DNA of 64,000 bases from Candidatus Pacearchaeota archaeon. GTDB lineage: Archaea > Nanobdellota > Nanobdellia > Pacearchaeales > GW2011-AR1. Below the pieces are notes generated by a model that saw only the letters and a program-made list of their open reading frames with translations, was not told where the DNA came from and searched no databases. A program made the position numbers and the translations under genes. Below, in pieces: positions 12,000-57,221 of the stretch; positions within the stretch are counted from its first letter, which is position 1, and each line of letters begins with the position of its first letter. The DNA lies in contig VGKO01000001.1 of NCBI GenBank assembly GCA_016867035.1, positions 1,998-65,997 of the forward strand, read 5' to 3'.

Positions 12000-13046
12000 T
12001 TAATCTTCTCCACTTTCTTCATCAGTAACGCCCTTGCTAGCTACAAAGAAAATAGTTTCATTATCAGGCAAGTTTGGGGAATCAATTAACTTAGCTACTC
12101 TTGAACCTTTCTTGCCTTTTCTAAGATAAATTCTATAAGTTGAAGCATGTCCAACTATATTCCCGCCAATAGCAGTTGTAGGATCTCCAAACAACATTCC
12201 GGGATTACTCATAACCTGATTAGTAACATAAATCGCAAGATTATTTTGCTCTGCAATTTTCATTAAATTATGTAAATACTTATTCAATTTTTGTTGTCTA
12301 TCTGCTAATTGTCCTCTTCCTGAGAATTCAGCTCTAAAATGAGCAGTAAGCGAATCGACTACAATTAACTTGATAGGCTCATTATTTTTAATCATCTCTT
12401 GAACCTTATCCAATAATAATATTTGATGGTCTGAATTAAAAGCTCTTGCAACAAATATATTTTTTAAAACATTTTCCGGATTTAGCCCAAGCCCTGTTGC
12501 AATTTGTCTTATTCTTTCAGGTCTGAAGGTTCCTTCAGTGTCAATAAATACTGCTTTTCCATTAGCTCCACCCATTTCCACAGGTAATTGAGTTCTGATG
12601 GCTAAAGTAAATCCAAGCTGAGATTTTCCACTTCCAAAAGCACCATAAGCCTCTGTAATTGATTTAGTTTCAACACCCTTGCCCCCTAGAAGATTATCTA
12701 AATTTTTGCTTCCTGTACCAATAAAAAATATTTCTTTTCTCTTTTCTGAAAACTCTGAACCTGTTTGAAAACCCAAGTCCATCATTTTTCTTGCTGCTTG
12801 GATTGCTTTTCTAGCAACCGCTTCTCCAAGCCCAGCCATTTCTCCAAGTTCGGCAGGCGATAATACTGCAACACCCATTAAATCATAAATACCCGCATCC
12901 TCAAGCTTTTGGACAGTTCCCGGCCCAATTCCAGGCAAATCTGAGATTTTGTTTTCTTTTTTTTCTTCTTTTTCTTTTTTGGATTTTTTCTTAGATTCTT
13001 CTTTTTCCTCTATAACCTCTTCTTTTATCTCTTTTAAAGTTACCAT
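12000..13046 (-). CDS. radA: DNA repair and recombination protein RadA (Rad51/RecA family)
   Basis: An N-terminal HhH ('LPGIGPGTVQKLEDAGIYDLMGVA') is followed by Walker A 'GAFGSGKSQL' and Walker B '...LIVVDSL'. It carries a Lys/Glu-rich N-terminal extension. Confidence 0.9.
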   Translation of the reverse strand: MVTLKEIKEEVIEEKEESKKKSKKEKEEKKENKISDLPGIGPGTVQKLEDAGIYDLMGVAVLSPAELGEMAGLGEAVARKAIQAARKMMDLGFQTGSEFSEKRKEIFFIGTGSKNLDNLLGGKGVETKSITEAYGAFGSGKSQLGFTLAIRTQLPVEMGGANGKAVFIDTEGTFRPERIRQIATGLGLNPENVLKNIFVARAFNSDHQILLLDKVQEMIKNNEPIKLIVVDSLTAHFRAEFSGRGQLADRQQKLNKYLHNLMKIAEQNNLAIYVTNQVMSNPGMLFGDPTTAIGGNIVGHASTYRIYLRKGKKGSRVAKLIDSPNLPDNETIFFVASKGVTDEESGED

Positions 13047-13148: not shown

Positions 13149-13502
13149 GTGGGAAGCACCTATTATCAAGAAGTTAAAGAATTAATGGCTTCGCAAGGAT
13201 ATGGCCGATGTACCCTAGATCAAGCCCATGTTTTTGATAAACTAGGTGTAGAAAACTACAAAAGAATTCTTAAGTTGGTTTTCCAAAAAAGCACAATTGA
13301 ATTTGAACTCGAGAATAGACTCGCAAGAAGGTATGCTTTTGTCGAAAGATGCAGAAGAAGAACCAAGGAGATTTTTAAAAGGCTAAGAGTCAAGATAACC
13401 ACCCTAGAAAAAGAAAAACATAATCTAAATGATTTACAAATAGCAGACTTAGAACACTCAGAGATATTTACAAGGACTCTTGAAGGAATATTCTCGAATT
13501 AA
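13149..13502 (+). CDS. Hypothetical protein (117 aa)
   Basis: The only support is the ORF itself. The stop abuts tRNA-Thr on the opposite strand. No recognisable motifs were found. Confidence 0.3.
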   Translation: MGSTYYQEVKELMASQGYGRCTLDQAHVFDKLGVENYKRILKLVFQKSTIEFELENRLARRYAFVERCRRRTKEIFKRLRVKITTLEKEKHNLNDLQIADLEHSEIFTRTLEGIFSN

Positions 13503-13574
13503 GCCTGTAGCCGGGATTGAACCGGCGACCCCCGCATTACGAATGCGATGCTCTACCAACTGAGCTATACAGGC
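13502..13574 (-). tRNA. tRNA-Thr (anticodon CGU)
   Basis: Reverse complement reads GCCTGTA-TA-GCTCAGTTGGTAGAGC-A-TCGCA-TTCGTAA-TGCGG-GGGTC-GCCGGTTCAATCCCGGC-TACAGGC. The 7-bp acceptor stem is perfect, with canonical D and T loops. The anticodon loop TTCGTAA gives anticodon CGT. Confidence 0.75.
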
Positions 13575-16794: not shown

Positions 16795-17418
16795 TTATAT
16801 TATATCTATAATTCCATTTTTTACACTTCCGGTATCTGAACAATGATAAACTTTATGGAAAAAATTGAAAGAGTGATGATTAATACTCATATTTAAAGAC
16901 CCCAATCTAACTTCATTATCCTTGCTTAAAGCAAGTTGTGGAGCCTCAAACAAAGTAGGATAAAAACCAAAGCATTTCTTGAACTCCCGCATACCATTTT
17001 TAATATAATTTTCGTCACGAATCTCTAAAAATTCTTGGAAAGTATGATAAAAACCAAAGCATTTCTTGAACTCCCGCATACCATTTTTAATATAATCTTC
17101 GTCACGAATCTCTAAAAATTCTTGGAAAGTATGATAAACCCCATGCATCCCAAGAGTTTTATTCAAAGCTAATATTTCCTGACACCAAGTTTTATTTTCG
17201 GCAATTGAAATATTATTATAAAGTGGAATTACCATTAGAATCTCGCTCTTTTCTATTATCTCTTTCTCGCAATATATTTGTGGAGAGAAGTCATCTACCT
17301 GTCTAGCCCAAAGGGCTCTTGCAAGAATAAAGTCAGCTATTAAAAAAACGATGGCAATTCCCAGAATTATAAGTATTATTCGCCATTTACTAATCCCTTT
17401 TTTATTTTTGTTTATCAT
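16795..17418 (-). CDS. N-terminally membrane-anchored protein containing a perfect-looking 29-aa tandem duplication
   Basis: An N-terminal TM helix ('WRIILIILGIAIVFLIADFIL') is present. 'YHTFQEFLEIRDE(D/N)YIKNGMREFKKCFGF' occurs twice in tandem. Confidence 0.5.
   Translation of the reverse strand: MINKNKKGISKWRIILIILGIAIVFLIADFILARALWARQVDDFSPQIYCEKEIIEKSEILMVIPLYNNISIAENKTWCQEILALNKTLGMHGVYHTFQEFLEIRDEDYIKNGMREFKKCFGFYHTFQEFLEIRDENYIKNGMREFKKCFGFYPTLFEAPQLALSKDNEVRLGSLNMSINHHSFNFFHKVYHCSDTGSVKNGIIDII
16960..17133. repeat. 87-bp tandem direct duplication (2 copies, about 2 mismatches) inside CDS 16795..17418
   Basis: The string 'ataaaaaccaaagcatttcttgaactcccgcataccatttttaatataat(t/c)ttcgtcacgaatctctaaaaattcttggaaagtatg' is seen twice back to back. 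Confidence 0.8.
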
Positions 17419-17431
17419 ATTATTTTATTAA

Positions 17432-18316
17432 TTATAACATCGCAAGCAAGATTAAGAGAAGAATAGCAAATAGAAAAGCCGGAGTAAAAGGAATACCATA
17501 TTTTATTTCAACCTTCTTGTTTTTTCCAAATCTTTTAGTAATTATTTTAAGTTCTTCTTCACTTAAACCTTCCCAATTAGGCTTTATTATTTTTTTTCCA
17601 ATCTTTACTTTAGTAGTTAACCAGTCTCCAATAGTTAAGTTAGAAACCGGGGGAAATTTAGTTAAGCAAGATTCCTCTATAGCCTTAGCAGCCAATAATA
17701 AAATAGGCAAAATAATCATCACCCCTGCTAAAATCATACCAATTGCTAGATTAAATAAAAAGAATACTCCAAAAACAATTGCAAAGAACAAGATAGAAGA
17801 TAGTGTCTGAATCTTATACTTAGAGAAAGAAATTATAAAACTTTTCTTAAACTTCCCCAGATGTAAAAACATTAAAGTTAAACTATAAATCAAGCCATAA
17901 ATACTTCCGGCCAGTATAAAGAAAAAAATAAACAAGCAAAATATCCAAATATTTTGATTAAAATTATTTGTTAAAGGTAAAAAAGCGCCAAGGGCTATTA
18001 AGAGTTTAGCATCCCCGCCGGCGAAAACCCTAGCATAATAAAAAATATTAGCCAATATAAAACCAACAACCACTCCAATCAAACCCCAAACAAAAAAACC
18101 CCAGTTAGCTAGTTCAATAGATAAAAAGAACCTATAAGCCAAAATAAAGACAATTAGACTAAAGTTCCACCAATTAGCAACCTCTCTCTTCCTAAAATCC
18201 TGGATAACAGCAATTAAAACCCAAAACAAAACCCCTATGATTAAAAACCAATTATAACTTGTTAATATCTCTTTAAGGTTGAGATTGAATAAGAATTGCA
18301 TAAAAAATAAGTCCAT
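17432..18316 (-). CDS. Type IV prepilin/preflagellin peptidase (A24 family; PibD/FlaK-like)
   Basis: It is a polytopic membrane protein. 'IQDFRKREVANWW' matches the first catalytic-Asp motif and 'FAGGDAKLLIALGAF' matches the GGD(V/A)KL second-Asp motif. It sits at the end of the pilin gene array. Confidence 0.7.
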   Translation of the reverse strand: MDLFFMQFLFNLNLKEILTSYNWFLIIGVLFWVLIAVIQDFRKREVANWWNFSLIVFILAYRFFLSIELANWGFFVWGLIGVVVGFILANIFYYARVFAGGDAKLLIALGAFLPLTNNFNQNIWIFCLFIFFFILAGSIYGLIYSLTLMFLHLGKFKKSFIISFSKYKIQTLSSILFFAIVFGVFFLFNLAIGMILAGVMIILPILLLAAKAIEESCLTKFPPVSNLTIGDWLTTKVKIGKKIIKPNWEGLSEEELKIITKRFGKNKKVEIKYGIPFTPAFLFAILLLILLAML

Positions 18317-18522
18317 TAGATATAAATTATTAATTATTATTTCCAGAGTTTATTTGATTAACCTCAGATGTTCTAAACTTACCGCCATGCTTATAAGGAA
18401 AAAGTTTACGTCTTTTTTTCTTGTCCTTACCTTTATTTCTTCTTTCACTACCTGAAGAATAAAAATCATCACCCATTATAAGAATAGGAAAAAAGGGTTT
18501 AAAAGTTTAATTAAAATTGAAT

Positions 18523-19041
18523 TTATTCTGTTCCTGTTTCTTCAATATTAGCAACTGTCTTTTCACAGCAAACCTCAGTCTTTACATCATGCATTTCTGA
18601 ATTTTGTATTTGAGAAGTAAAATCTTTTGCGGTTCCGCATCCAGGGTTCTTTGACTTCCAGTCACAGTTAAGGACACCATCATCTTTTAATGAAGTTTCA
18701 GCACAATCCACATTTGGACAACTTTCAAGTCCTGCCTCGCCCACATTAGTTCTCAGAGTAGAACAACTTCCTCTAAAAGAACGCTTATCGTCTAAATTAA
18801 TTGTTCTTGATTTTCCACAGAACTCATAAACCTGACTAGTAGAACATGCCGCAGTACAAGCATTTTTAATAGTATCTACATTTGTACCTGAACCAAAGAA
18901 ATTTTTAATATTATCCATCAAACTTCCGCCGCTTCTAGTAAAACTAAATATTAAGAAAACCAATACAACAATAGCAATAATAATTACAATTATTGTACCA
19001 ACACTCATTTCCTGAGCTTTTTTATTCAATAAGTTTCTCAT
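18523..19041 (-). CDS. Pilin-like protein with class III (type IV pilin) signal peptide; Cys-rich C-terminal domain
   Basis: '...NKKAQEMSVGTIIVIIIAIVVLVFLIF' is a KKA|Q processing-site-like motif followed by a hydrophobic stretch. There are 12 or more Cys C-terminally. Confidence 0.6.
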   Translation of the reverse strand: MRNLLNKKAQEMSVGTIIVIIIAIVVLVFLIFSFTRSGGSLMDNIKNFFGSGTNVDTIKNACTAACSTSQVYEFCGKSRTINLDDKRSFRGSCSTLRTNVGEAGLESCPNVDCAETSLKDDGVLNCDWKSKNPGCGTAKDFTSQIQNSEMHDVKTEVCCEKTVANIEETGTE

Positions 19042-19078
19042 GTTCCTCTTTGTATCTAACCATATATGTTTCTGGGGT

Positions 19079-19555
19079 TTAAAAATCTATCTCAAAAACA
19101 ACGTCTGTGTTAAAATTAACCGCCTCTATTCCGAAATCCTTATTGGCATCTATAACCTTACTAATCCTAAATCCAGAAAGATAAAAATATAGTTTATTTC
19201 CCTCAACTTTTGATTTAGCATAATTTCCTTCTTGTACTTGAAGATTATATTCTTCTAATTCTTTAATTCCTTCGGCTTGATTTGAGAATTCTTGCTTGAA
19301 CTGAACTATAAAGTCTGAAGTCCCAAATTTTGCCCCTTGATTTTCTGTTAAAACTTTTTCTGCAACAGCCCTCATGGTGAATTCAATCCCTTGTTGTTCT
19401 GAATAAATATGCAACAACTCTGAAGAACCCTGTATCTTCTCTTGATTACTAGCTTTCGAAGTCATAAACATAAATAAGGCAAAACCTACGAGTAAAACAG
19501 TCATTATGACTAAAATTGTAATTGCAATATCTCCTTTCTTTCTTTTAAACATCAT
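19079..19555 (-). CDS. Pilin-like protein with class III signal peptide
   Basis: 'MMFKRKKGDIAITILVIMTVLLVGFALFMF'. The start overlaps the upstream gene's stop by 4 bp. Confidence 0.6.
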   Translation of the reverse strand: MMFKRKKGDIAITILVIMTVLLVGFALFMFMTSKASNQEKIQGSSELLHIYSEQQGIEFTMRAVAEKVLTENQGAKFGTSDFIVQFKQEFSNQAEGIKELEEYNLQVQEGNYAKSKVEGNKLYFYLSGFRISKVIDANKDFGIEAVNFNTDVVFEIDF

Positions 19556-20157
19556 GTTATTGAAGTCCCCCTTGCAGCTCTTTCAGCAGCCTTGTCTAAT
19601 GCCGACTCTGTTAAGCTTTTTTGAACATAACCCTCACAATCAACCAGACCTAGTTTTATTTTAATAAATTTATCCTCGCTTGGATAAAAAAAGACTATGC
19701 TATTTGGAGACAGACATTTGGATTGTATTGTAGGGTCTGCTTCTTTATTAAAAATGGATTTATCATTGATAGAAACCGAATGAAAAACAAAGTTAGAACC
19801 TTTGAATATCTCTTGATTCAACGAAGCGATAAAGCTTCCTAGTTCAGAATAAGATACTTCGCCTTTTACATAACTTAAAATTTCTTGTTTAAGAGAGGTT
19901 TGTCTTTCTTTAAATAAAATTATTTGATTAAAATTTGAAAAAGCAGCAGAGGTAGTTGCTTCCACTAAAAGACTTGAAGACCTTTCAGTTTTACCAAAGA
20001 GTCCAGAAACACTTGAAACTGCTTTTCTTGGGGCAGCCATCCCAACAGAAAAGCTTACAAATAGAAAAATAATAAAAAATATAATAATAAAACCCACCAC
20101 CCAAGTAAGAGTAGAGGGAGTTTGTGCCTTTCTAAGTTTTATTTTATTTGATTTCAT
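19552..20157 (-). CDS. Pilin-like protein with class III signal peptide
   Basis: 'KLRKAQTPSTLTWVVGFIIIFFIIFLFV'. Confidence 0.55.
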   Translation of the reverse strand: MKSNKIKLRKAQTPSTLTWVVGFIIIFFIIFLFVSFSVGMAAPRKAVSSVSGLFGKTERSSSLLVEATTSAAFSNFNQIILFKERQTSLKQEILSYVKGEVSYSELGSFIASLNQEIFKGSNFVFHSVSINDKSIFNKEADPTIQSKCLSPNSIVFFYPSEDKFIKIKLGLVDCEGYVQKSLTESALDKAAERAARGTSIT

Positions 20158-20159
20158 TT

Positions 20160-20642
20160 TTATTTTTTAACAAATTTATAGTTTGAACCCGTAGTCATTT
20201 CAATGTTAACTTTTTCACCCAAATAAGACGAAGAAATCTTTTTTTGAGTACAAAGAGGATAGGCCTTAGCATTTAATTGTGAAGCAAATAAACAATCCTC
20301 TTCAAAAGCACGATTACCGAAGACTAAATTTTTAGAATTAACTCCACTAATAGAGAGTTTTATATAAAAGAAGCCAGAATTTTCGATTAGATTTCTATTT
20401 AAATCACAGGTATCAAAAAAATTAAAGTCTTCTGAAAATACGCTAGGATTAACTTGGCCATTATTTATTAAACAATCAACTACTTTATTTGTAATAATTT
20501 CAGACTGTAAAACCCGAATATCAATGTCGCTAGCATAAAATATTGAAGTCCCTGCAATCATTCCTGCCCCAATAACTGCAAGTACCAAAAACCACCAAAC
20601 AGACAATAAATTACCCTTTCTTCCAATTTTTTTAGATAGCAT
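20160..20642 (-). CDS. Pilin-like protein with class III signal peptide
   Basis: 'KIGRKGNLLSVWWFLVLAVIGAGMIAG'. Confidence 0.55.
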   Translation of the reverse strand: MLSKKIGRKGNLLSVWWFLVLAVIGAGMIAGTSIFYASDIDIRVLQSEIITNKVVDCLINNGQVNPSVFSEDFNFFDTCDLNRNLIENSGFFYIKLSISGVNSKNLVFGNRAFEEDCLFASQLNAKAYPLCTQKKISSSYLGEKVNIEMTTGSNYKFVKK

Positions 20643-20643
20643 T

Positions 20644-21054
20644 TTAAACTTTTTTTAGAACAAGAACCTCCTGATTCTCTTGAGATTTATCTACATAGTA
20701 ACTAAAAGACTTTGAAGAAGATAAAAATTGAAAATTATATCCCCCTGATCCAAGTACCTGAATGTGAATTGTGTTGGTATTACTATCTATAGAAATAACT
20801 TGCCCACTATATCTATTTTTTTCTGCGAAATCATATAACTTTGTTAGAGAAAAATTAGCTTCTGTACCTGGTTTCATTGAATCTATTAAGATAGCAACTG
20901 TTTTAGCACTTGTTTCTTCTAAAACAGCAGCACCGGTGCTAGCCCGAACAATAAAAAACATAATTGCAAGTAAAAAAATCAGATTTAGAATAAGAAAAAT
21001 TAATTGTTTGGAGATTATTTCATCCCCTTTTTTATTTTTAATAAAGTTTTTCAT
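20644..21054 (-). CDS. Pilin-like protein with class III signal peptide
   Basis: 'KNKKGDEIISKQLIFLILNLIFLLAIMFFIV'. Confidence 0.55.
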   Translation of the reverse strand: MKNFIKNKKGDEIISKQLIFLILNLIFLLAIMFFIVRASTGAAVLEETSAKTVAILIDSMKPGTEANFSLTKLYDFAEKNRYSGQVISIDSNTNTIHIQVLGSGGYNFQFLSSSKSFSYYVDKSQENQEVLVLKKV

Positions 21055-21060
21055 CTTAAA

Positions 21061-22149
21061 TTAGGGGATACTCTCTATATTAGAACAATATTTCGCAATC
21101 TCACTAACATTATAATCTACGCTTCTTACAACTGAACAACCCTCATAGGTATCGTCGCCAATTTTAGAATCCCCACAATAACTAGCGGTTATCTGCCTAT
21201 TATAAGCTACATTTGACTGTTGTAACCCTATTCCAACTGCAGCAGATATAAGCGCTACCAATGGATTTTTAAAAAGCCCAGAAGCTAATTGTTTAGTCCA
21301 AGTAGGAGCTAATACTCTACTTGCTCCATATCCTCCTAAAAGAGCAGTTGCGCTATTTTTAAGACTGGTGCCGTATTGTGGAGCAGATATCTGCATAAAA
21401 ACTATTGCAGACTCTTTATTAAATGCAGAATAATCTGAAACCGGTTCTTTTAAGTCTTCAGGTTTTATAGAGGAGCCTTCTGACTTAAGAGTATTTCCAT
21501 CTTTTTGATAATTAAAATCTCCGAAAGAGATATCTGAATTTAATGAATCCTTAAAGTTATATAATCCTCCAGCGCCAGAAATATATTCCATATAAGTTTT
21601 CTCCTCGCCAGGAACCTTATGCGTTATCATATAACTGCCAACATCAATTTTTGAGAAATCAAATTCAGGTTCTTTTATTCTAGATTTATCAAAGGCTATC
21701 CTTGTACAGATAATGCAACTTGGAGAAACGGTTCCGAATCCAAAATTTTTAGCTAGAGTTTGGGAGAACAAATTTAATTTGCCTTCGCCCATGGTGCTCC
21801 AGCAATCCAAAATTTCTTGTGCGTAAATTTGTTCTATCTGTTCTTCATTTCTAACCCTCACTCGAGTTATACCTTTTTCACCAATAAAATCTGCGCACTC
21901 TCCCCCCAGTAATCCTGAAGTAATACAAATTTTATTAGTTTTACATTTTAAAGGAAGAAACCCCTGAGTCGATTCAGGAATAGTAGCTCTGAATATTACC
22001 GATTGATGACAAACTTCCCTATCCATTGCACCAGTTCCACCAAGGTTATAGAAAAAAATAAGAACCATCATGAATCCAAGAACAAGAAGCACGATAGTTA
22101 CTATCCAAGCTATCGTTATTTCCCCTTTTCTTTTTTTATCCTTTCCCAT
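21061..22149 (-). CDS. Large pilin-like / pilus-associated protein with class III signal peptide (362 aa)
   Basis: 'KKRKGEITIAWIVTIVLLVLGFMMVLIFF' is followed by a Cys-containing globular region. Confidence 0.55.
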   Translation of the reverse strand: MGKDKKRKGEITIAWIVTIVLLVLGFMMVLIFFYNLGGTGAMDREVCHQSVIFRATIPESTQGFLPLKCKTNKICITSGLLGGECADFIGEKGITRVRVRNEEQIEQIYAQEILDCWSTMGEGKLNLFSQTLAKNFGFGTVSPSCIICTRIAFDKSRIKEPEFDFSKIDVGSYMITHKVPGEEKTYMEYISGAGGLYNFKDSLNSDISFGDFNYQKDGNTLKSEGSSIKPEDLKEPVSDYSAFNKESAIVFMQISAPQYGTSLKNSATALLGGYGASRVLAPTWTKQLASGLFKNPLVALISAAVGIGLQQSNVAYNRQITASYCGDSKIGDDTYEGCSVVRSVDYNVSEIAKYCSNIESIP

Positions 22150-22344
22150 TTTAAATAATCAAAAGATTTCAACATTAAAAATCTATGCAGTGAGATTATC
22201 AACTAGTAATTTAACCCCAAAAGCAAGTATGGCAAAAAGAGCAATTCTTAATAGCCATAAAAAAAAGTGGCTTCCTGGATTTTCCTCGCCTTTTTTATTT
22301 TTAAAAAGATTTACCATTGTATTAAGAGTTGTATTAGGATTTAT

Positions 22345-23223
22345 TTAAGACTTACATTCAGGAACCCCCAATTCCCAGATTTTTAATTTTACTTCAAAAC
22401 TTTTTCCATTTGGAGAAGTAAGCTGAGCAGAACCCAAATCTAAAACCTTGCTAGAGCCATCCCAGCCAAAAGCCATGCCTGTATTCGTAATAACGCTATT
22501 ACTATTAAAGCCACCAACATTAGAAATTTCCATTCTGAAAGCAAGAGAATTGGTTTTTTCGGAAAAATATTCGTTAAGAACATTTAAAGGATAATTGCTA
22601 TAAACTCCGCCGGGCTCATCAACATAAAGACCGAGTATATAAGAAATATCTGCATCATGAACATTGGAATCATATTGGGGTTTATACTGTGCAGAAGAAC
22701 TTAAAATCTCGATTAGCTTAATATTTTGACCAACCAACTTATACTCTTCTGAATAAATAAGGATATTTCCAGAATCATTCTTTATTAAAAGGTTCAAGGG
22801 TGTTTTTAAAATAACAAAGCAAGGATAAATATTATCATATTGTTCAAACCCTTGCTGATAAAAATAAAATTTTTCTTTAGTTGATTTACATTGACCTGTT
22901 TTAAAACAATCTTGCCTACCTTCCTTACAAAGACAAAGGCAATTAGAATCTCCGCAGGAAGAAGGTTTACTCTCTTCTTCTTTAAAAGAAAAAATAGACC
23001 AATCTTTTAAATTAGTAATAAGATATTGAGCTTGAGCACCATTAGCTAAAGCCTTTCCTTTGCCAGCAATATCTTCTAATATTGCTTTAGCCTGTTCTAT
23101 TTCAGAACCTCTTGTAAAAATACCATAAAGTCCGAATGCTAAATAAAGAAGAAGTATTATGCAGAAAACTGCAATAACTAACTTCAAAACTTCTGGTAAA
23201 ACAATTGCTTTTTTGTTTATCAT
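22345..23223 (-). CDS. Pilin-like / pilus-associated protein with class III signal peptide (292 aa)
   Basis: 'MINKKAIVLPEVLKLVIAVFCIILLLYLAFG', with a Cys-rich segment 'CGDSNCLCLCKEGRQDCFKTGQC'. Confidence 0.5.
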   Translation of the reverse strand: MINKKAIVLPEVLKLVIAVFCIILLLYLAFGLYGIFTRGSEIEQAKAILEDIAGKGKALANGAQAQYLITNLKDWSIFSFKEEESKPSSCGDSNCLCLCKEGRQDCFKTGQCKSTKEKFYFYQQGFEQYDNIYPCFVILKTPLNLLIKNDSGNILIYSEEYKLVGQNIKLIEILSSSAQYKPQYDSNVHDADISYILGLYVDEPGGVYSNYPLNVLNEYFSEKTNSLAFRMEISNVGGFNSNSVITNTGMAFGWDGSSKVLDLGSAQLTSPNGKSFEVKLKIWELGVPECKS

Positions 23224-23224
23224 T

Positions 23225-24121
23225 TTAAGAATTATTTTTAATTATTTCTAATTTACCTGATTTATAGACTAAATTGGTTAAATAAAAACCAGTATCTCCT
23301 AGTTCTTCACCAAAAGTTATTCTAGAATCAAAAGTATAGTAAGAGTCTACAAGATAACTTTTACGAACATAAACCTTCCCATCAGACATTACCATTGCCA
23401 AAAGTTTCCTGCTATTACCCACATAAAGAAGGCTATTTTCTTTTGAGTTCTCTATTAAAATCCTACCTTCTTCGCCTTCTTTTGCAACCAAGAGAAGACT
23501 TTTATCCGCAATATTTTTAGATTTAAAATAAATAGTATTAAGTTGTGAAATTAAAGTTACAATAGGATCTTCAGGCAACAACTCTTTACTTTTGCTTTTA
23601 AATATTTCTGCCCCCACTATTTTCGCGCCTTCTAATTTTCGAACATAAATCTCATTTACATCGACCGAACCAATATATTTATGATAATATATTGAATTAA
23701 TTACAAAGAAATAATTCTTAATTGTTCCAAGAGTCTTATCATTCCAAGCGCCCGGAACATTTATAATAATCTCGCCTTGTCCTTCATTCAATTCAACATA
23801 AAGATTGCTAGGAATTTCCTTATAACTTGGTTTTTCAGAAGTTCCAACATTATCTAAAAAAATAATGTAAAAATCTTTAACACTTTCTTGTTTTAATTCA
23901 ATCTTACCTATTAATTCATAATTAAGAGCTTTTATTTGTGTAGGAGTAAGCGTATTTTCATTATCCGGACTTTGTTGAAAACCTGGAAGATTTCTTATCC
24001 ATCCAAATATTTCTGGTTTGGTAAAGAATAATACGACTGCTACTATAACTAATAAAACCAAGATTAGAGTAATAATTTTACTAATTGCCAAGCTCTCAGC
24101 TGCTTTTTTATTTTTTAACAT
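23225..24121 (-). CDS. Pilin-like / pilus-associated protein with class III signal peptide (298 aa)
   Basis: 'KNKKAAESLAISKIITLILVLLVIVAVVLFF'. Confidence 0.55.
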   Translation of the reverse strand: MLKNKKAAESLAISKIITLILVLLVIVAVVLFFTKPEIFGWIRNLPGFQQSPDNENTLTPTQIKALNYELIGKIELKQESVKDFYIIFLDNVGTSEKPSYKEIPSNLYVELNEGQGEIIINVPGAWNDKTLGTIKNYFFVINSIYYHKYIGSVDVNEIYVRKLEGAKIVGAEIFKSKSKELLPEDPIVTLISQLNTIYFKSKNIADKSLLLVAKEGEEGRILIENSKENSLLYVGNSRKLLAMVMSDGKVYVRKSYLVDSYYTFDSRITFGEELGDTGFYLTNLVYKSGKLEIIKNNS

Positions 24122-24290
24122 TTTAGTGTAACCTCAAAAAATTTCTTATAAATTCTAGTAACGATGTTCCGTGGTTTTTTGCGGCTATATAAGCAAATAC
24201 TAAAATAGCAAGAGCAATTGCCCCGATTATCCAATAACCAAGGACTTTTAGTTCCATAGCTTTTTTATTTCTAAAAAAACTTAGCATGAC

Positions 24291-24623
24291 TTAACAAGCA
24301 CCAGTGCAAACCAATTTATTTATACTAGAACCCCAAGATTTCTCACTAGCTAAAGAACAAGTTAACTCTAATTTCTCAGATTTGGATAGCTTGACAGTCC
24401 TATTAACACAACAAAATTCATATTTTCGTTCTTGCTCTCCAAGAGTATCACATTGGCTTACAACTGAATCAACATTACTTGAAGTAAAAAATGAATCCAT
24501 CTTCTCACCAAAACTACCAGAAGAGCGATTAAACAATAGCACAAGAGCAACAAGTACAATTATTGCTAAAACAATTAAAATAATAGTATTCAAAGCCAAC
24601 TCCACTCCCTTTTTACCTTTCAT
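24291..24623 (-). CDS. Pilin-like protein with class III signal peptide (110 aa)
   Basis: 'MKGKKGVELALNTIILIVLAIIVLVALVLLF'. A C-terminal 'YEFCC...C...C' motif is shared with 18523..19041. Confidence 0.6.
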   Translation of the reverse strand: MKGKKGVELALNTIILIVLAIIVLVALVLLFNRSSGSFGEKMDSFFTSSNVDSVVSQCDTLGEQERKYEFCCVNRTVKLSKSEKLELTCSLASEKSWGSSINKLVCTGAC

Positions 24624-24762
24624 AAATTCCTCAAGAAACCCAATTATTTAAAGGTTATTAATGGAAGTAATAATAAGCCCCCTTTCTCTTCTTAACCCAA
24701 TTGTAGAATAAACCCCAAAATAAAAGATTAAAACAAAAAAGTTAATTAAAAACTAATAAAAA

Positions 24763-25074
24763 TTATGAACTAGCAGAAGCAGGCGGCCAATAGCCTCTTC
24801 CTTCAATAAAAAGAGGTTCCTTAGAAAGAGCTTTTGGAGACCTATTCAAAACACCCACTAAAAAACGGCCCATACCCAATCTTCTTAACCTTTCTGCTTC
24901 TCTTTCAGCGCCTTCAAGCAATGCCTGTTGCACTTCTGCTTCTGTCGGCATTCTTGCTCTGCAAGGAACATCCCCCAACGCTTTAAGCCCTCTTACAACA
25001 TGTTCATCCCTATCAAAAGGTTCGAAAGGAGGATAAGGTAAAACATAGTTATTTCTCATAAAAGATATAATCAA
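24763..25074 (-). CDS. Hypothetical protein of atypical (Arg/Ala/Gly/Glu-rich, GC-richer) composition
   Basis: The ORF sits between the platform gene and the pilin array. Local GC is visibly higher than the flanks. 'PCRARMPTEAEVQQALLEGAEREAERLRRLG' is unlike the K/I/N-rich host proteins. Confidence 0.3.
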   Translation of the reverse strand: MIISFMRNNYVLPYPPFEPFDRDEHVVRGLKALGDVPCRARMPTEAEVQQALLEGAEREAERLRRLGMGRFLVGVLNRSPKALSKEPLFIEGRGYWPPASASS

Positions 25075-25119
25075 AACAACTATTTAAGGATTTCTATATA
25101 AACAAAAACAATGTGTGAT

Positions 25120-27282
25120 TTATATTGTCAGATTACTCAAGGCAACCCCTGCAAGTAAACTCAAAGCGATTATTGCAATTAAGGAAACAATCAAGTACAG
25201 CCATCCGCCCTTCAAAAGATTTTTAGAAATATCATAGGTAACTTTTAGTTTATCTTCACCAGCATCAACTGTAACTAAAGCTTTAGTGAGAATAAAAATT
25301 ATTTCAATTATATACAGTCCAACTGAAATTTGTAAGAAATAAGGGGGGATCATAGCATCTACCGGGAACAAATCTTTAATCCTAACAATATTTCCAAATC
25401 CTGAAAGATCTGCTCCAGAAATTTCAGCAGAACTTAAAACAGCATCGAGTTTACTTAAAATTAAAGTTATCATCCCGCCAAGCCCAACAACAATTCCTGC
25501 AAGTAAAGGAGCAAGGAAAGTCATATTACTCTTCATATCACTTACTACATCAGCAAGTAAATCCCTAAGTCTATCGTTAATCTTTTTAATATTTCTAACA
25601 TAATCTGCAATACTCATCAGAGATTGCGCAGCAACCTTTAATCCTTTTTTTACCGCTTCAATTAAAATATGCATAGAAGTCGAAATTAGATTTGAAGGAT
25701 AATTAATAATCGCCCCTCTTTTTGGATCAAAAATAGCACGTTCAAGACCCATACCTAAACTTTGAATATTAGAATTAACTTGCTTAAAAAATTGTTCAGT
25801 AACTTGTCCTCTTGAACTTTCAATAACTCTGCCAAAAGCAAGTTCAGCAGGAGTTCCATCTCCAATTCTGTTAGCAAGTTGGAATAAGGAATTATTAAAT
25901 TCGTCCTCTAATTGCTTAGAAAAATCTCGTGATTTTATTATTTCTTTAGTTTTTCCAGAATAGGCTATAGAAAAAAACAAAAATACAGAAACAGGAATAA
26001 ACAAACTAAATAACAAAGCCAGAGGGCCCATTGGCATTCCGTTCACAAAGTCAAAAACCTTTATGTTACCTAAAAATCCTACTCCCAATTCCATAAAAGT
26101 ATAATCTTCCTGTAATCCTAAAAGAGAAGCCAAACCAGTATAATGCAAAAGGAAAGGTAGAATTCCCAAAATAAAAATTGGAACACTAATTAAAGCAGCC
26201 CTGAGATAGGGTCTTCTAGATTTATATTTAGGATATAAGGGATTTAATTCTAATATACTCGACTCGCCATAACCTCCTGGCCTGCGCGACATAATATCAT
26301 TAGTCATATAAAAAACCATAAAAGGTATAAGTAAATTAAAAATAACAAAAACATGATACCACTTAATTGCTCCTTCAAGTAAAGCCGAACCCAAGGGCAA
26401 TAAAGCAAGTCCAAGGGTTGGTAAAACAATACCCAACATATAAAGATTAGTTAAAGGTGCTTTAACATCGTGTGAGAATTTAAGCATTTTATCATAAACC
26501 CCGTCAAGAATTACCTGCAATGCTCTTTCTAAAATTTCAACCCTTCTAGCATCACTTGGTTCATACAAACTAGACTCGATTAAATTAAAACTCTCAACAA
26601 ATTCTGGGCTAGTTCCCCTCCAAGTTTCCAGATAATTATCTAAACTCTGTTTTATACTAGAAAATCTACCTATTTCAACATCCCAAAAAACTTTTCTTAA
26701 ATCTAAAGCAAGAGGAGGTTCGAGATGCTGGCTTGCAAATCTTATTGCCCTTTCTAAATTACTGGTGTGTTTCATATAAACTACAGTATAAAGTATACAG
26801 GGAACCATCTGTGAACCTGCTTTTAATCTCCATTCGTTACCCAATCTTTTTGGAGCACCATAAAAATAATAAAAAACAAATCCTGCAGTCAGCATTGCTA
26901 AAAATAAAAGTAAGAAGCTGAAAAAACTAGTAAAAAGATAAATAGCAACTGTCAAAATCAAGCCACCTAAAAAAATCAAAATAGAAGATAAAAAAGCCAA
27001 GCTTACAACATTACTTGGAGTAATATCTAGATGTGCCCCTTCAATCTCGGTCTGTATTCTTTTTTCATCGCTAGAAGCTAATTTAATCTTTAGACTCCCG
27101 CCAATATTTTTACATAATTTTTCATACCTTGAAAAATTAGGAAGCATATCTTGTTTAAATTGTGTAAATTCCGCAGAAATATCGCTTGAAGCAGGACTAT
27201 AATTACTAAGTACAGAAGAGCTAGTTCCTTTACTTAAAACTCCACCGTATTTTTTTAAAATATCTTCAGTACTTTTTGCCAT
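25120..27282 (-). CDS. Type IV pilus/archaellum platform protein (FlaJ/TadC/PilC-like; two T2SS-F-like cytoplasmic domains, polytopic)
   Basis: The 720-aa product has alternating long soluble segments and TM clusters, matching FlaJ/TadC topology. It is adjacent to the secretion ATPase. Confidence 0.65.
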   Translation of the reverse strand: MAKSTEDILKKYGGVLSKGTSSSVLSNYSPASSDISAEFTQFKQDMLPNFSRYEKLCKNIGGSLKIKLASSDEKRIQTEIEGAHLDITPSNVVSLAFLSSILIFLGGLILTVAIYLFTSFFSFLLLFLAMLTAGFVFYYFYGAPKRLGNEWRLKAGSQMVPCILYTVVYMKHTSNLERAIRFASQHLEPPLALDLRKVFWDVEIGRFSSIKQSLDNYLETWRGTSPEFVESFNLIESSLYEPSDARRVEILERALQVILDGVYDKMLKFSHDVKAPLTNLYMLGIVLPTLGLALLPLGSALLEGAIKWYHVFVIFNLLIPFMVFYMTNDIMSRRPGGYGESSILELNPLYPKYKSRRPYLRAALISVPIFILGILPFLLHYTGLASLLGLQEDYTFMELGVGFLGNIKVFDFVNGMPMGPLALLFSLFIPVSVFLFFSIAYSGKTKEIIKSRDFSKQLEDEFNNSLFQLANRIGDGTPAELAFGRVIESSRGQVTEQFFKQVNSNIQSLGMGLERAIFDPKRGAIINYPSNLISTSMHILIEAVKKGLKVAAQSLMSIADYVRNIKKINDRLRDLLADVVSDMKSNMTFLAPLLAGIVVGLGGMITLILSKLDAVLSSAEISGADLSGFGNIVRIKDLFPVDAMIPPYFLQISVGLYIIEIIFILTKALVTVDAGEDKLKVTYDISKNLLKGGWLYLIVSLIAIIALSLLAGVALSNLTI

Positions 27283-27582
27283 TTCTCCCTCTTTTTTACA
27301 TCCAGATTAGATAAATAATCTATATAAATGTTTATTCTCGCTCGGCTGCTGCCTCGCTTAGGCAATTAATAACTGCAACTTATTAACAACACCGCGCATA
27401 AGTTAATTAAACATACCAAACTATTTATTATCTTTAATTCTTTCTGTTTGGATTTGCAGGCATTGTAGGTTTGTTTTTTCTACTTGACTTACTTAACCTA
27501 TTTAACTATTCGAAACCAACACCACCCATTAAACTGACGCAGAATAAACATAATAAAAAAGTAAGAATTACACATAACAAAA

Positions 27583-29868
27583 CTAAATCTTCTTAGCAGC
27601 ATTAATCGCCCACTTTTGCCATTCAGGGAAAACCTTTTCTCCGAGAGGCAAACCTATTTCTTCAGTAATCTTATCAGAAACCTGATGAAAAATACTATTA
27701 CTTAGAACATTGAATCCTGCTTCAAGAATCTCTGGCTTGCCTATTTTTTCCGATAGATTAACTATTTCTGCTTTAATCTTAGCCCTAAGTAAAATATTAT
27801 CATAAACTGCATCCCAATTTCCAGCCCAGCTCTTAACTCCTGCCGCAATATTCTTAATTATCTCGCTATCACCATTAATTAAATCTTCACTCGGCTCAAG
27901 CTCGTCTTTCTCAACATTATATTTCAACAAATCTACAAATCCTTTTTCTTCTAGAGGATCTCGAGTCCAATGTTTTCTTACTTCTGTTAATTGTAAAACT
28001 CTTCTTACGCTATGCATTCCATCCGGAGTTTTAACAGGATTAGCAACAATAATACAATCTGTTGCTTTAAAACTAGTTACAGGAACTCCTAAATCATTTA
28101 CCACTCTATCAAAAACACCATAGGGGCTTGCACCATGAATTGTTCCTGCAACAACATTAGCCAAAGCCCCAATTCTCATTGCTTCATATAATGCTCGAGC
28201 TTCCTGACTTCTAACCTCACCAATAATCAGGCAAGAATCCCCAAGTCTAAGTGAAGTTCTAATTCCCTCATCAGCAGATACCTCATTAGTTGTTTGTAAT
28301 AAAGCACTCCTAACCTTCATCCTTAAAATATCATAATTCAGCTTTCTCATTGTATCTACTGCAAGTTCAGGAGTATCCTCTATTGTAATTATTCTATATT
28401 TTGGCATTATCTCGAGCATTAAACTTCCTAAGAGCGAAGTTTTACCTGAGCTCCTTGTTCCAGCAACTAACATTGTTCTAGAACCGTCCACTAAAAAACT
28501 CATAAGTCCTGCTCCAAAAGAATTAATCATTTTATTTTTTATAAAAAGAGGTAATGTCCAAGGCGATTCTCTATGACGTCTAACAGCATAAGCAATACCA
28601 CTTGGAGATAAAGGTTGCTGAACAACCGCAATTCTTGCTCTTATCTCCCCAATAGACAAGTCTGTGTCTAAAATAGGATTAGCTTCATCTAAAGGCCTGC
28701 CTGAAATCATTCTAAATTTAGCTGCCCAAGAGTCTGCATCTTCTTGACTAGGAATTATATTAGTAGAACATTCATCAAAATCATTATGCCTTAAAAAAAT
28801 AGGATTCTGAGTTATTGGTGCATTTAAAACAATATCTTGTAAATTTTTATCTTTTAATAATACTTCAATTAAACCAAATCCAATTGTATGTCTAACTAAA
28901 ATCATGGCTAATTTGTTTATGTCTGAATAACTAAGTTTTATTCCTTGATTGTCCGCAAGTTCGCGAACTAAATCTCGCGAAACATTAAAAAATACTTGCC
29001 TGGTTCTCTCAGGATCGGTAAATTCTTCTGCTTTAGGTTGATGTTCAATTAAAACATTTCTTGCAAGATTTAGGAGTAAATGATGGTCCTCTTTTAACGA
29101 GTATTCGGGAGGCATTAAATGATAAAAATATTTAACTTCTTCAGATTTTTTTAGTATCGTGACTACTGAGATATCATATCCTTCTCCAACCTGATATTGA
29201 TCCACTATCTTAGCTTCTCTAGGTAATTGAGAAACAAGTCTTGTAAAAGTAAAATTAGGGATAATATCCGGTCTGAAAATATAAGAATAAATTTTTCTAT
29301 CCCCAAACTTATAATCTTCGAGATATTTTTCAATAGCACCAAAAAATCTCAAATTCAAAAGAAACTGAATAAAATTTTCCAAAAGTCTAAGATAAAGTAA
29401 ATTATCGTATTCTGTATTTTTATTAGAACCAAGAGATGCCAAAAGAGATTTCTCTTTAGCAACAGCATTCTTTAATTCAAAAAAACAAGCAAGCGGGTCT
29501 GATTTAAGAAGTCCAAGTAAATAAGTAATAAAATTATATCTTACCGCAAGCTCATTGGGATTATTATAAGAAAGTTTATTGGGTGATAAAACCCTTTCTT
29601 CGTTTACCAATCGAGTATAAAGGTTAGCAATTTCCCTTAAAAAAACCAATTGGCTATAATCATAACTATAATTTCTTTGCTGAACAAAAACTATTCTTGA
29701 AACATTTGGTGTCTTTATCAAATAATCTATTACTTGTGCCATAATCTCTTGGGAATCAGCAATATTAGGAACCAAAGGTGCTCCTAAGAAATTAATGTAC
29801 ATTACATCTTCATCAGCTTCTTTTTCAACTTCGTATGCGTAAAGCGGTGTGCCTGGTTTAAATAACAT
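27583..29868 (-). CDS. Type II/IV secretion-system ATPase (FlaI/PilB/VirB11 family) with long N-terminal extension
   Basis: Walker A 'VAGTRSSGKTSLLGSL', 'ITIEDTPE', Asp and His boxes ('IIGEVRSQEA', 'GTIHGASP') are present. The catalytic core starts far into the 761-aa protein. Confidence 0.85.
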   Translation of the reverse strand: MLFKPGTPLYAYEVEKEADEDVMYINFLGAPLVPNIADSQEIMAQVIDYLIKTPNVSRIVFVQQRNYSYDYSQLVFLREIANLYTRLVNEERVLSPNKLSYNNPNELAVRYNFITYLLGLLKSDPLACFFELKNAVAKEKSLLASLGSNKNTEYDNLLYLRLLENFIQFLLNLRFFGAIEKYLEDYKFGDRKIYSYIFRPDIIPNFTFTRLVSQLPREAKIVDQYQVGEGYDISVVTILKKSEEVKYFYHLMPPEYSLKEDHHLLLNLARNVLIEHQPKAEEFTDPERTRQVFFNVSRDLVRELADNQGIKLSYSDINKLAMILVRHTIGFGLIEVLLKDKNLQDIVLNAPITQNPIFLRHNDFDECSTNIIPSQEDADSWAAKFRMISGRPLDEANPILDTDLSIGEIRARIAVVQQPLSPSGIAYAVRRHRESPWTLPLFIKNKMINSFGAGLMSFLVDGSRTMLVAGTRSSGKTSLLGSLMLEIMPKYRIITIEDTPELAVDTMRKLNYDILRMKVRSALLQTTNEVSADEGIRTSLRLGDSCLIIGEVRSQEARALYEAMRIGALANVVAGTIHGASPYGVFDRVVNDLGVPVTSFKATDCIIVANPVKTPDGMHSVRRVLQLTEVRKHWTRDPLEEKGFVDLLKYNVEKDELEPSEDLINGDSEIIKNIAAGVKSWAGNWDAVYDNILLRAKIKAEIVNLSEKIGKPEILEAGFNVLSNSIFHQVSDKITEEIGLPLGEKVFPEWQKWAINAAKKI

Positions 29869-30011: not shown

Positions 30012-30377
30012 ATGGCTGAAAATGAACAAATTCCCGATTATAGTGCATTTCTTTCAGATATCAGTGTAAAAATCAGAGATATAGAAGAAAAAGAAAACAT
30101 ATTGAAAGACAGAGTACTCTTAATCGGAGAAAATTTAGTAAATCAAAGAAATGATATAGATCAAGAATTCTTAGAAATAAAGGCCAAAATACTGGAAATA
30201 GAATCTGAGCTAAAGAGGATAAGATTAACCTTACAAGGAATTCTTGAAAATTCCGACAATCTCGTGAGAAGAAACGAGTTTGATATATTAAAAAGACAAT
30301 TTGAAATGTTTCAACCTCTTGAATTAGCCAGGATATCAGATGTAGAGAGAATGATAAATAAAGCACTAAAAAAATAA
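30012..30377 (+). CDS. Coiled-coil protein (121 aa), function unknown
   Basis: Heptad-like periodicity is present throughout ('LEIKAKILEIESELKRIRLTLQGILEN'). It is divergent from the ATPase gene. Confidence 0.4.
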   Translation: MAENEQIPDYSAFLSDISVKIRDIEEKENILKDRVLLIGENLVNQRNDIDQEFLEIKAKILEIESELKRIRLTLQGILENSDNLVRRNEFDILKRQFEMFQPLELARISDVERMINKALKK

Positions 30378-30432: not shown

Positions 30433-31266
30433 ATGGCATTACTTGATAGAATAGGAAAAATGAAACAAACAGGAATGAGCGATAGCCAGGTAGCCGATAC
30501 CCTAATGCAAGAAGGCATTTCTCCTAGAGAAGTTAATGATGCACTAGGACAATCAAAAATAAAATCCGCGATTTATCCTAATGAACAAGCACAAGGAGAA
30601 GAACAAGCAATGCAACCAAGCATAATGGAGCAATCCGAAGGAGGTACAGCAGCACCACTTCCAAGTCAAGGATATCAAAATCAAAATTATTATCCTGGCC
30701 AAGATAATACTCAAGGATTCTATCAAGACCCAACCCAAGCCTATGCGCAAGACGGCTATGATCAAACCCAGCAAGGATATGATCAAGTTTACTATCAACA
30801 AGCAATTGATATGGAAACTGTCCGCGACATAACTAGACAAGAAATTGAAGATAGTTTGAAAAAGATTAAGCAAGATATGGATGCTTTAAGTAAAATTAAA
30901 ACAGAAATGAAATTTCAAGTTCAAGGAATAGACTCAAGATTAGCAAGAATCGAGAACATTATACAAGAACTACAATCAGCAATAATTCGCAAGATGGGTG
31001 AATATGGGGAAGCCATTTCTAGTGTTTCTGAAGAACTTCAAGCAACCCAGAATAGTTTTTCTAAAATGATTAATCCATTAATGGATAAAAAACGAGGCTA
31101 TCAAGAAGATTTGAAAAATCAAGCCCAAGAATCTCAAGAACAATATGAAGAACCAGCGCCCACAACAAACCCACCAGAAAAACAATTTAAAAAGAAACCA
31201 CAAGCACAACAATCAAAAAACAGAAAAGCCGATTCAAGAGTAAGTGTAGAAGACTACTTTAGATAA
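30433..31266 (+). CDS. Protein with N-terminal UBA-like domain, Q/Y/N-rich low-complexity (prion-like) region and C-terminal coiled coil
   Basis: 'LLDRIGKMKQTGMSDSQVADTLMQEGISPREVNDAL' resembles UBA-like domains such as the EF-Ts N-terminus and NAC-alpha C-terminus. 'GYQNQNYYPGQDNTQGFYQDPTQAYAQDGYDQTQQGYDQVYYQQ' is low-complexity. Coiled-coil heptads lie in the C-terminal half. Confidence 0.5.
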   Translation: MALLDRIGKMKQTGMSDSQVADTLMQEGISPREVNDALGQSKIKSAIYPNEQAQGEEQAMQPSIMEQSEGGTAAPLPSQGYQNQNYYPGQDNTQGFYQDPTQAYAQDGYDQTQQGYDQVYYQQAIDMETVRDITRQEIEDSLKKIKQDMDALSKIKTEMKFQVQGIDSRLARIENIIQELQSAIIRKMGEYGEAISSVSEELQATQNSFSKMINPLMDKKRGYQEDLKNQAQESQEQYEEPAPTTNPPEKQFKKKPQAQQSKNRKADSRVSVEDYFR

Positions 31267-55526: not shown

Positions 55527-55527
55527 T

Positions 55528-57096: not shown

Positions 57097-57221
57097 TTCC
57101 TTAGCCCCTGATTTACTTTGTTCTATTAAAGCAATTAACCAGTCCAGACCGGATTTATTTATTGTTTTTGTTTTTTTATTTTTTTAAATATAGTTGTACT
57201 GCATTTGTGCTATTCTCAAAG

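Follow-up and report, generated by a model that had tools for sequence, protein, structure and literature searches.

A block of genes in the chromosome of a Candidatus Pacearchaeota archaeon (DPANN) very probably constitutes a locus for the biogenesis of a type IV filament (TFF), one of a family of loci conserved across Pacearchaeota and Woesearchaeota. The block occupies positions 17432-29868 of the stretch of DNA analysed here (64,000 nucleotides of contig VGKO01000001.1, hereafter the window), where all long open reading frames (ORFs) in the ORF listing are co-oriented on the minus strand, and it combines a motor ATPase, a membrane platform, eleven pilin-like genes and an A24 signal peptidase. 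An earlier note on this DNA had described a complete, co-oriented type IV pilus-like locus without archaellum accessories, and this description was upheld by hidden Markov model (HMM), fold, synteny and motif tests. The twelve ORFs on which it was based are all present on the minus strand, with the coordinates, lengths and N-termini that were given for them, and its guess of a small-genome symbiotic archaeon agrees with the origin of the window in Ca. Pacearchaeota.

Re-listing the gaps between these genes, with ORFs down to 20 amino acids, added four further co-oriented genes (encoding 54, 44, 98 and 48 amino acids). The 98-, 54- and 44-amino-acid genes are also among the Joint Genome Institute (JGI) gene calls on an identical metagenome contig, so these three are independently called and not invented. 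From the p110 gene through the peptidase gene (Table 1), intergenic spacing ranges from -4 to 46 bp, and larger gaps are found only between the ATPase and platform genes (300 bp) and between the 98-amino-acid ORF and p110 (139 bp). Spacings of 0-6 bp or 4-bp overlaps, as claimed earlier, thus describe only part of the array.

Motor, peptidase and platform

The ATPase matched Pfam T2SSE (3.3e-14) and several NCBIfam models of the same superfamily, namely FlaI (1.9e-36; 125.9 bits, far below the equivalog cut-off of 550), TadA (3.5e-35; 121.8 bits, not reaching the cut-off of 373), BasE (8.7e-19; 67.6 bits against a cut-off of 1000) and, among the weaker matches, ComGA (3.4e-11). Its closest solved structures are Archaeoglobus GspE (afGspE, 2oap; 3.9e-28), CpaF (4.5e-22) and FlaI (1e-16). 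Walker A (G470-S478), the Asp box (E497/D498), Walker B (E551) and the His box (H578) are invariant in 31 homologs, and more than 120 clusters of ATPases at 69-90% identity have lengths of 757-765 amino acids. The T2SSE match and the four invariant catalytic motifs bear out the previous assignment to the FlaI/VirB11 family.

Residues 218-609 of the ATPase align with positions 27-397 of the afGspE chain, and residue 300 aligns with position 95 of the FlaI chain. These offsets indicate that approximately 190-205 N-terminal residues are extra and that what remains ahead of the P-loop corresponds to the N-terminal domain normal for the family. The extension before the P-loop that the earlier note had reported is therefore real, but relative to afGspE and FlaI it falls short of the several hundred residues proposed. 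In a structural model this N-terminal module comprises a beta-alpha unit and a confidently predicted five-helix bundle, for which only generic structural neighbours were found. The extension of approximately 200 residues is lineage-specific; subsystem-specific N-terminal domains have been described for archaeal TFF ATPases (bioRxiv 10.64898/2026.04.22.720090). The term "giant", applied previously to both large proteins, does not suit them, as the excess of the ATPase amounts to these approximately 200 residues and the platform is built of the usual two domains.

The proposed A24 prepilin peptidase with both catalytic aspartates was confirmed by its Pfam match (Table 1) and by the complete conservation of D40 and D102 (F-x-G-G-D-x-K-L-L) in 47 orthologs (100%). 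A C-terminal G-I-P-F-x-P-A-F motif of the peptidase is likewise conserved in the 47 orthologs. FlaK was the sole NCBIfam match (2.5e-10, below cut-off).

For the platform, we compared folds and searched for distant relatives. An AlphaFold2 model (predicted local distance difference test score 76, predicted template modelling score 0.70) is all-helical, with approximately nine transmembrane (TM) helices. A family profile searched against 1.84 billion cluster representatives recovered 1217 clusters at 50% identity with E<=1e-3 (484 with E<=1e-30). Pfam T2SSF was matched by seven of ten distant full-length relatives, at residues ~138-280 or ~400-510, with a best value of 7.6e-8 and one match above the gathering threshold; among the 28 close relatives, two matched T2SSF. 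A search of PDB sequences with the 28-sequence family profile returned nothing, and DUF2207_C, which matched 20 of the 28 members, was discarded as noise of TM composition. Fold comparison and transitive homology identify the 720-amino-acid protein as a genuine platform of the GspF/PilC/TadC/FlaJ type that has two domains and has diverged strongly, in support of the FlaJ/TadC-like polytopic protein postulated earlier. Neither in the window nor in any of the 84 related loci are the two domains split between genes; a single gene holds both.

Pilin-like genes and their leader sequence

We scanned the window in six frames for ORFs in which K/R-G/A occurs among the first 25 residues and is followed by a strongly hydrophobic 17-mer. 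This class III pattern was returned by eleven contiguous genes, by two further real genes (the neighbouring DUF2334 gene and one for a 212-amino-acid multi-TM protein) and by a few spurious internal ORFs. Such near-confinement to eleven contiguous genes places the cluster far from chance. The eleven products range from 44 to 362 amino acids, and each has exactly one predicted TM segment, which is N-terminal and directly follows K/R-G/A. Nine such genes had been counted earlier, and the skipped gaps hold the 54- and 44-amino-acid genes. The upper end of the size range then given (110-362 amino acids) stands, but the range starts at 44; the nine cleavage contexts quoted were correct, and several pilins are indeed Cys-rich (p110, p292, p362, p160 and p172; Table 1).

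The leaders of 370 class III ORFs from 84 loci were aligned and gave the consensus M-x-N(57%)-K(87%)-[KR]-[GA], with E/Q/D at +1, E at +2 and approximately 20 hydrophobic residues. Because the search pattern specified neither N at -4 nor K at -3, the N-K-[KR]-[GA] consensus is real and lineage-specific.

The two shortest products consist of the N-terminal helix only. p54 begins with MLSFFRNKKA↓MELKVLGYWIIGAIALAILVFAYI (the arrow marks the predicted cleavage site), and its orthologs of 50-70 amino acids, found in 37 loci, have the consensus ..KKG↓xE..WWII..IKNLFRFG. p44 begins with MVNLFKNKKG↓EENPGSHFFLWLLRIALFAILAF, with the cleavage context KNKKG↓EENPG, and ORFs of 36-44 amino acids occupy the same position in three related contigs (L002, L003 and L004). 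A post-helix motif (xNFF...NVD; ..IKNFF..) is common to p110, p172 and p54, which appear to be paralogs that have or lack a Cys-rich head. Orthologs of p298 evolve fast (22-56% identity), and p298 had no match in Pfam. The p362 family has eight conserved Cys, including a "CHxSV" motif, and searches for relatives in Pfam and the PDB found none; p362 is a candidate tip or adhesin subunit. Near its C-terminus (residues ~268-320) p362 has a Gly/Ala-rich, moderately hydrophobic segment (..ALLGGYGAS..LVALISAAVGIGL..), and one ortholog matches Gly-zipper families of Pfam (best 1.9e-5). A membrane-interacting loop in this putative tip pilin would be speculative.

Conservation, mechanism and alternative readings

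The platform family is present in at least 297 species-level (representative) genomes, and the 80 genome titles that were fetched all name Pacearchaeota, Woesearchaeota, Nanoarchaeota or an unclassified archaeon. Four long contigs (L001-L004) have one layout, in which a pair of coiled-coil genes is followed by the divergent ATPase gene, the platform, approximately ten class III genes, a microprotein gene and the peptidase. The order of the pilins is identical in the four contigs, and genes for HIT, aEF-1beta and a DEAD helicase recur in the flanks. Between platform and peptidase, nearly all of the 25 loci analysed have 8-11 class III ORFs (median 10), the exceptions being one locus with 5 and one short interval with none. 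Most complete loci include tiny class III ORFs of 36-70 amino acids.

We calculated median identities of proteins from related loci relative to those of the window. The ATPase core (residues 218-761) reached 75%, the whole ATPase 67% and its N-terminal extension 48%; values were 59% for the platform, 43% for the peptidase and 29-37% for the pilins. Syntenic genes gave 56% (DEAD-box helicase), 52% (OB-fold protein) and 41% (aEF-1beta). The loci were picked by platform similarity, which biases the platform value upward; the comparison of ATPase and helicase is fair, and the ATPase was the more conserved in 23 of the 25 same-locus pairs among those listed. A slowly evolving motor together with fast but ordered pilins is the pattern that an important surface organelle would be expected to show, with changing selection acting on its exposed parts.

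Homology to characterised TFF systems suggests how the parts might work together. The eleven prepilins would be inserted into the membrane via their N-terminal hydrophobic helix, and the aspartyl peptidase would cut after G/A through D40 and D102, removing the short basic leader M-x-N-K-[KR]-[GA]. A hexameric GspE/FlaI-type ATPase would dock onto the two GspF-like cytoplasmic domains of the platform, and ATP hydrolysis would move mature pilins from the bilayer into a helical filament. The larger, often Cys-rich pilins (p298, p292, p362, p136, p160, p201 and p158) probably form a priming or tip complex with binding functions, and for the shaft the probable building blocks are the small p110/p172/p54 paralog group or the helix-only pilins of 44-54 residues, as in Flp/Epd-type pili. 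The N-terminal domain of the ATPase and the coiled-coil pair would serve to place the motor or to regulate it. What the analysis shows is the gene content, the family or fold to which the three enzymes belong, the leader motif, the synteny and the pattern of conservation; leader cleavage, assembly of a filament, the choice of major pilin, the part played by the coiled-coil pair and the biological function are inferred from these.

Pacearchaeota and Woesearchaeota, which are abundant and have not been cultivated, have a minimal metabolism and are thought to be attached to hosts. Adhesion to host cells or surfaces appears to be the most likely role of the filament, with uptake of DNA or nutrients as a possible added role. 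In groundwater, pili-like appendages of ultrasmall cells were seen by cryogenic transmission electron microscopy (cryo-TEM) to reach hosts, and Pacearchaeota are enriched in the host-attached size fraction (PMC7906910). According to two reports (PMC9894109, PMC11623550), type IV pili were shown to drive episymbiotic attachment of Saccharibacteria, episymbionts of the Candidate Phyla Radiation. These too are ultrasmall, host-dependent cells that invest in type IV pili, but their machinery is of the bacterial T4aP type (PilB/PilT/PilC/PilA), and the likeness is an analogy of lifestyle, not orthology. Given minimal metabolism, enrichment in the host-attached fraction, the pili-like appendages and the Saccharibacteria analogy, an adhesive or host-contact pilus is best supported.

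Several results weigh against this reading. A direct search of Pfam and NCBIfam with the 720-amino-acid platform gave no match, so that T2SS-E/F models, which had been named as a check for both large proteins, were matched by the ATPase but not directly by the platform. The platform assignment was the weak point of the earlier note; its whole basis is the fold comparison and transitive T2SSF homology, and because of these it stands despite the failure of the direct HMM search. None of the eleven pilin-like products matched pilin or archaellin families of Pfam, and the label "pilin" accordingly depends on the N-terminal signature, the context and the conservation. An archaeal TATA-like TTTAWATA box is well positioned ahead of three genes and had suggested transcription units, but such boxes are not enriched over chance within the window. 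Finally, the argument for a role in host contact draws on lifestyle and on cryo-TEM images of ultrasmall cells that were not identified, and not on this organism. (Scans for sigma-70 promoters and terminators, models not applicable to archaea, gave counts at shuffle level.)

The same core parts could belong to a DNA-uptake pilus or pseudopilus of the competence type, in which a short filament would bring DNA to a channel and so feed nucleotide-poor DPANN cells. The ComGA match of the ATPase is in keeping with this, as is the strong purifying selection on the motor, which fits a nutritional role; pilin and competence genes are common in ultra-small prokaryotes (PMC9938205), and retraction without PilT is conceivable because CpaF, the second-best solved relative, is a bifunctional extension/retraction motor. 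We nevertheless consider DNA uptake as the main function unlikely. No ComEC-, ComEA- or DprA-like gene was seen in the locus or the scanned flanking ORFs, a DNA-binding domain was detected in none of the pilins, and eleven pilins, several of them large, Cys-rich and globular, exceed the known needs of a competence pseudopilus. Slightly less likely again is a short assembly, resembling a type II secretion pseudopilus or the Sulfolobus bindosome (Bas) and either anchored at the surface or spanning the periplasm, that exports or displays proteins such as hydrolases or binding proteins and makes no long adhesive fibre. Archaeal TFF machines with binding proteins carrying class III signals have been proposed (bioRxiv 10.64898/2026.04.22.720090), and several of the pilin-like proteins include globular domains of considerable size whose fold is unknown; however, a substrate-binding-protein or hydrolase domain was found in none of the eleven products. 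The ATPase does match the bindosome ATPase BasE, but more weakly than FlaI or TadA and far below the cut-off, and helix-only pilins of 44-54 residues are typical of fibre-forming Flp/Epd systems.

An archaellum, that is, a rotating motility filament with a FlaI/FlaJ pair, was rejected as highly improbable, because there is no archaellin (Arch_flagellin was matched by none of the eleven products at E<=1), no FlaH, FlaF or FlaG in the scanned locus and its flanks, and no FlaI equivalog. In agreement with the previous statement on archaellum accessories, neither these genes nor FlaCDE (ArlF/ArlG/ArlH, ArlCDE/ArlX in the alternative nomenclature) were found in the scanned locus and flanking genes. 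It is true that FlaI was the top NCBIfam match of the ATPase and FlaK the only one of the peptidase, and that JGI annotations give "FlaI" for some ATPase homologs and "FlaC" for two homologs of up277, one of the coiled-coil proteins. Yet afGspE and CpaF are closer solved relatives of the ATPase than FlaI, its elaborate N-terminal domain is atypical of archaellum motors (bioRxiv 10.64898/2026.04.22.720090), and FlaC_arch matched a single up277 homolog, at E=0.33.

Comparison with described systems places the host-contact pilus proposed here within the TFF superfamily: the locus encodes a motif-bearing ATPase, a platform, substrates with class III signals (predicted cleavage) and an A24 peptidase with two aspartates. 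This minimal core is that of archaeal TFF systems in general (Makarova et al. 2016, PMC4858521; Sivabalasarma & Albers 2026, bioRxiv 10.64898/2026.04.22.720090), which are also alike in having a subsystem-specific ATPase N-terminal domain, many co-localised pilins and cytoplasmic coiled-coil candidates. In contrast to those systems, the platform described here is missed by Pfam T2SSF, no known pilin family is matched by the pilins, and the locus has its own N-K-[KR]-[GA] leader, a conserved microprotein and an ATPase-linked coiled-coil pair. The Epd pilus of Methanococcus maripaludis (TFF system 1, reported in some DPANN) shares a cluster of approximately 11 genes, many pilins, very short pilins without a globular domain, and a signal peptidase within the locus, which here lies at the 3' end of the array; system 1 has two platform genes, whereas the single 720-amino-acid gene holds both T2SSF-type domains. 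Like this locus, bacterial Tad/Flp systems (CpaF/TadA, TadB plus TadC, Flp, TadV) combine helix-only pilins of very small size with an A24 peptidase of their own and lack a retraction ATPase of the PilT type, and CpaF and TadA were the second-best solved relative and NCBIfam match of the ATPase. The locus differs from them in that its ATPase is no TadA/CpaF equivalog, one fused platform replaces separate TadB and TadC, no secretin or outer-membrane part is encoded, and the leader and mature N-terminus differ from those of Flp. Subclade 4F, known from Halobacteria and Methanocella, has a cytoplasmic coiled-coil component (arCOG07564), and its ATPase is present in "nanoarchaea" for which no pilins could be identified (Makarova et al., PMC4858521). 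A coiled-coil component and pilins invisible to family models are a likeness by description, which we treat as a lead only.

The locus is a lineage-specific branch of a well-known family of machines and overturns nothing; in public databases the ATPase already bears the label "type II/IV secretion system ATPase" and some platform relatives the label "TadB", and we found no paper detailing this locus family of Pacearchaeota and Woesearchaeota. That it represents a distinct, DPANN-specific (Pacearchaeota/Woesearchaeota) TFF subsystem is a tentative proposal that we hold to be possible but rather doubtful, based on the ATPase N-terminal module, the diverged platform, the approximately 10-11 private N-K-K-G/A pilins, the microprotein and the ATPase-linked coiled-coil pair. 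If so, a motor under stronger purifying selection than its housekeeping neighbours would fit an essential host-contact organelle of obligate symbionts, and the filaments could be the pili seen entering host cells in groundwater by cryo-TEM. Vague labels such as "hypothetical protein" or "TadB" give way to a defined, testable list of parts conserved in hundreds of species, among which the two ATPase-tied coiled-coil proteins and the microprotein upstream of the peptidase gene are newly remarked. The N-K-[KR]-[GA] leader and the platform alignment could be used directly to find such systems; the Pfam and NCBIfam models now available recognise neither the platform of the window nor any of its pilins. 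The pilin set offers candidates for determinants of host range.

Companion genes and surroundings

Table 1. Coordinates and properties of the genes discussed. Positions are those of the window, except for the last three rows, which refer to related contigs; arrows mark predicted cleavage sites.
Feature	Coordinates	Strand	Length (aa)	Cleavage context	Cys	Remarks
Secretion/assembly ATPase	27583..29868	-	761			GspE/VirB11/FlaI/TadA superfamily; Pfam, NCBIfam and PDB matches
Polytopic membrane platform	25120..27282	-	720			~9 TM segments; two GspF/PilC/TadC-type cytoplasmic helical domains, ~143-275 and ~446-588
98-aa ORF	24763..25059	-	98			No signal peptide, no TM; GC peak up to 51% vs ~32% background; JGI call
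p110	24291..24623	-	110	KKG↓V	6	p172 paralog; TATA-like box 22-29 nt upstream
p54	24123..24287	-	54	KKA↓M		Helix-only, Flp/Epd-like size; single N-terminal TM; JGI call
p298	23225..24121	-	298	KKA↓A	0	Class III scan, TM scan
p292	22345..23223	-	292	KKA↓I	9	Orthologs in 43/51 loci
p44	22183..22317	-	44	KKG↓E		Helix-only; ORF re-listing; JGI call
p362	21061..22149	-	362	RKG↓E	10	Orthologs in 48/51 loci, most widely retained pilin
p136	20644..21054	-	136	KKG↓D		Orthologs in 45/51 loci
p160	20160..20642	-	160	RKG↓N	4	Orthologs in 47/51 loci
p201	19552..20157	-	201	RKA↓Q		Q at +1 in 14/15 orthologs
p158	19079..19555	-	158	KKG↓D		4-bp overlap with p201
p172	18523..19041	-	172	KKA↓Q	10	p110 paralog; orthologs in 38/51 loci
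Basic microprotein	18330..18476	-	48			Core (F)PYK(H/K)GGKFR; immediately upstream of peptidase gene
A24 prepilin (class III signal) peptidase	17432..18316	-	294			~8 TM segments; Pfam Peptidase_A24 2.7e-12
up121	30012-30377	+	121			Cytoplasmic coiled-coil; divergent from ATPase
up277	30433-31266	+	277			Cytoplasmic coiled-coil; divergent from ATPase
DUF2334 gene	16795-17418	-		KKG↓I-type		Polysaccharide-deacetylase-like; directly downstream of peptidase gene
Giant ORF	3166-11709	-	2847			5.7 kb from pilus locus
RHH-like ORF, L001	9828-10004
RHH-like ORF, L003	9850-10008
RHH-like ORF, L004	9838-10017

The coiled-coil pair, up121 and up277, lies within 600 bp of the ATPase start in divergent orientation in 46 of the 47 loci in which all three genes were found. 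The linkage holds also in approximately 20 loci whose ATPase gene is detached from the platform and lies 4.4-7.5 kb downstream of it on the other strand, and it argues for a functional tie of the pair to the ATPase, which may run via the lineage-specific N-terminal module. We regard up121 and up277 as candidate ATPase-associated accessory proteins. In up277 an N-terminal domain of three helices is accompanied by a Q/Y-rich linker and a coiled coil; the up277 family comprises 88 proteins, of which the few that are labelled by organism are all from Pacearchaeota and most are metagenome entries. Neither protein matched a significant family in Pfam, NCBIfam or the PDB. Homology to FlaC, CdvA, DivIVA or ZapA was rejected, as all matches had E>=0.01 and were typical coiled-coil cross-matches; the FlaC_arch match concerned one of six proteins scanned (five up277 homologs and up121 of the window), and the JGI label "FlaC" is unsupported.

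Orthologs of the microprotein, of 36-48 amino acids, occur at the same position in L001-L004 and were detected by BLAST in 29 of 51 loci. Residues R13, G31 and G32 are 100% conserved, and the microprotein had no match in Pfam. The product of the 98-amino-acid ORF is not a pilin. It had no match in Rfam, Pfam or NCBIfam, and an ortholog at the same position (13347-13544; 59% identity) is limited to the closest relative, L002, for which reason the ORF may be a recent acquisition. A search of phage records with the ORF gave no match. A structured RNA in the GC-rich stretch 24763-25074 was discarded, with no Rfam match at the gathering score or at E<=10; the stretch corresponds to the ORF that is conserved in the nearest relative.

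Related loci vary in architecture. In approximately 20 genomes (L059, L060, L064, L067, L069, L072, L082, L084 and ~12 others) the ATPase and the coiled-coil pair form the detached arrangement described above. In 18 related loci the start of the platform is overlapped by an ORF of 52-59 amino acids that resembles ribbon-helix-helix (RHH) proteins (VKIDKELxxxIEEFI...KKQVVNLAIIEFL) and is a possible regulator of the locus. We looked for a remnant of this gene between the ATPase and platform genes of the window (27283-27582) and found none, and the closest relative also lacks one. An ABC transporter pair is inserted between ATPase and platform in L001 (7378-9826), and an Acyl_transf_3 gene follows the platform in L002 (12174-13268).

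The DUF2334 gene adjoining the peptidase gene contains an internal tandem duplication of approximately 30 residues, in which YHTFQEFLEIRDE[DN]YIKNGMREFKKCFGF occurs twice. It is found at the same position in L002 and L003 and is present in only 6 of 51 loci. The product of the giant ORF on the same strand, a candidate giant surface adhesin, starts with a signal peptide of the Sec type (MKKSLLVFTIVILFFIFAINFVSA↓G) and also contains GLUG motifs, a ConA-like lectin/Laminin_G_3 domain (5e-30) and, at the C-terminus, a PRC-barrel domain. Core archaeal genes of replication and repair, encoding the large and small subunits of PolD, Orc1/Cdc6 and RadA (52014-58460 and 12000-13046, both on the minus strand), show the context to be chromosomal. 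A stretch of low GC content (26%) at 58001-60000 adjoins orc1/cdc6 and may be a replication origin.

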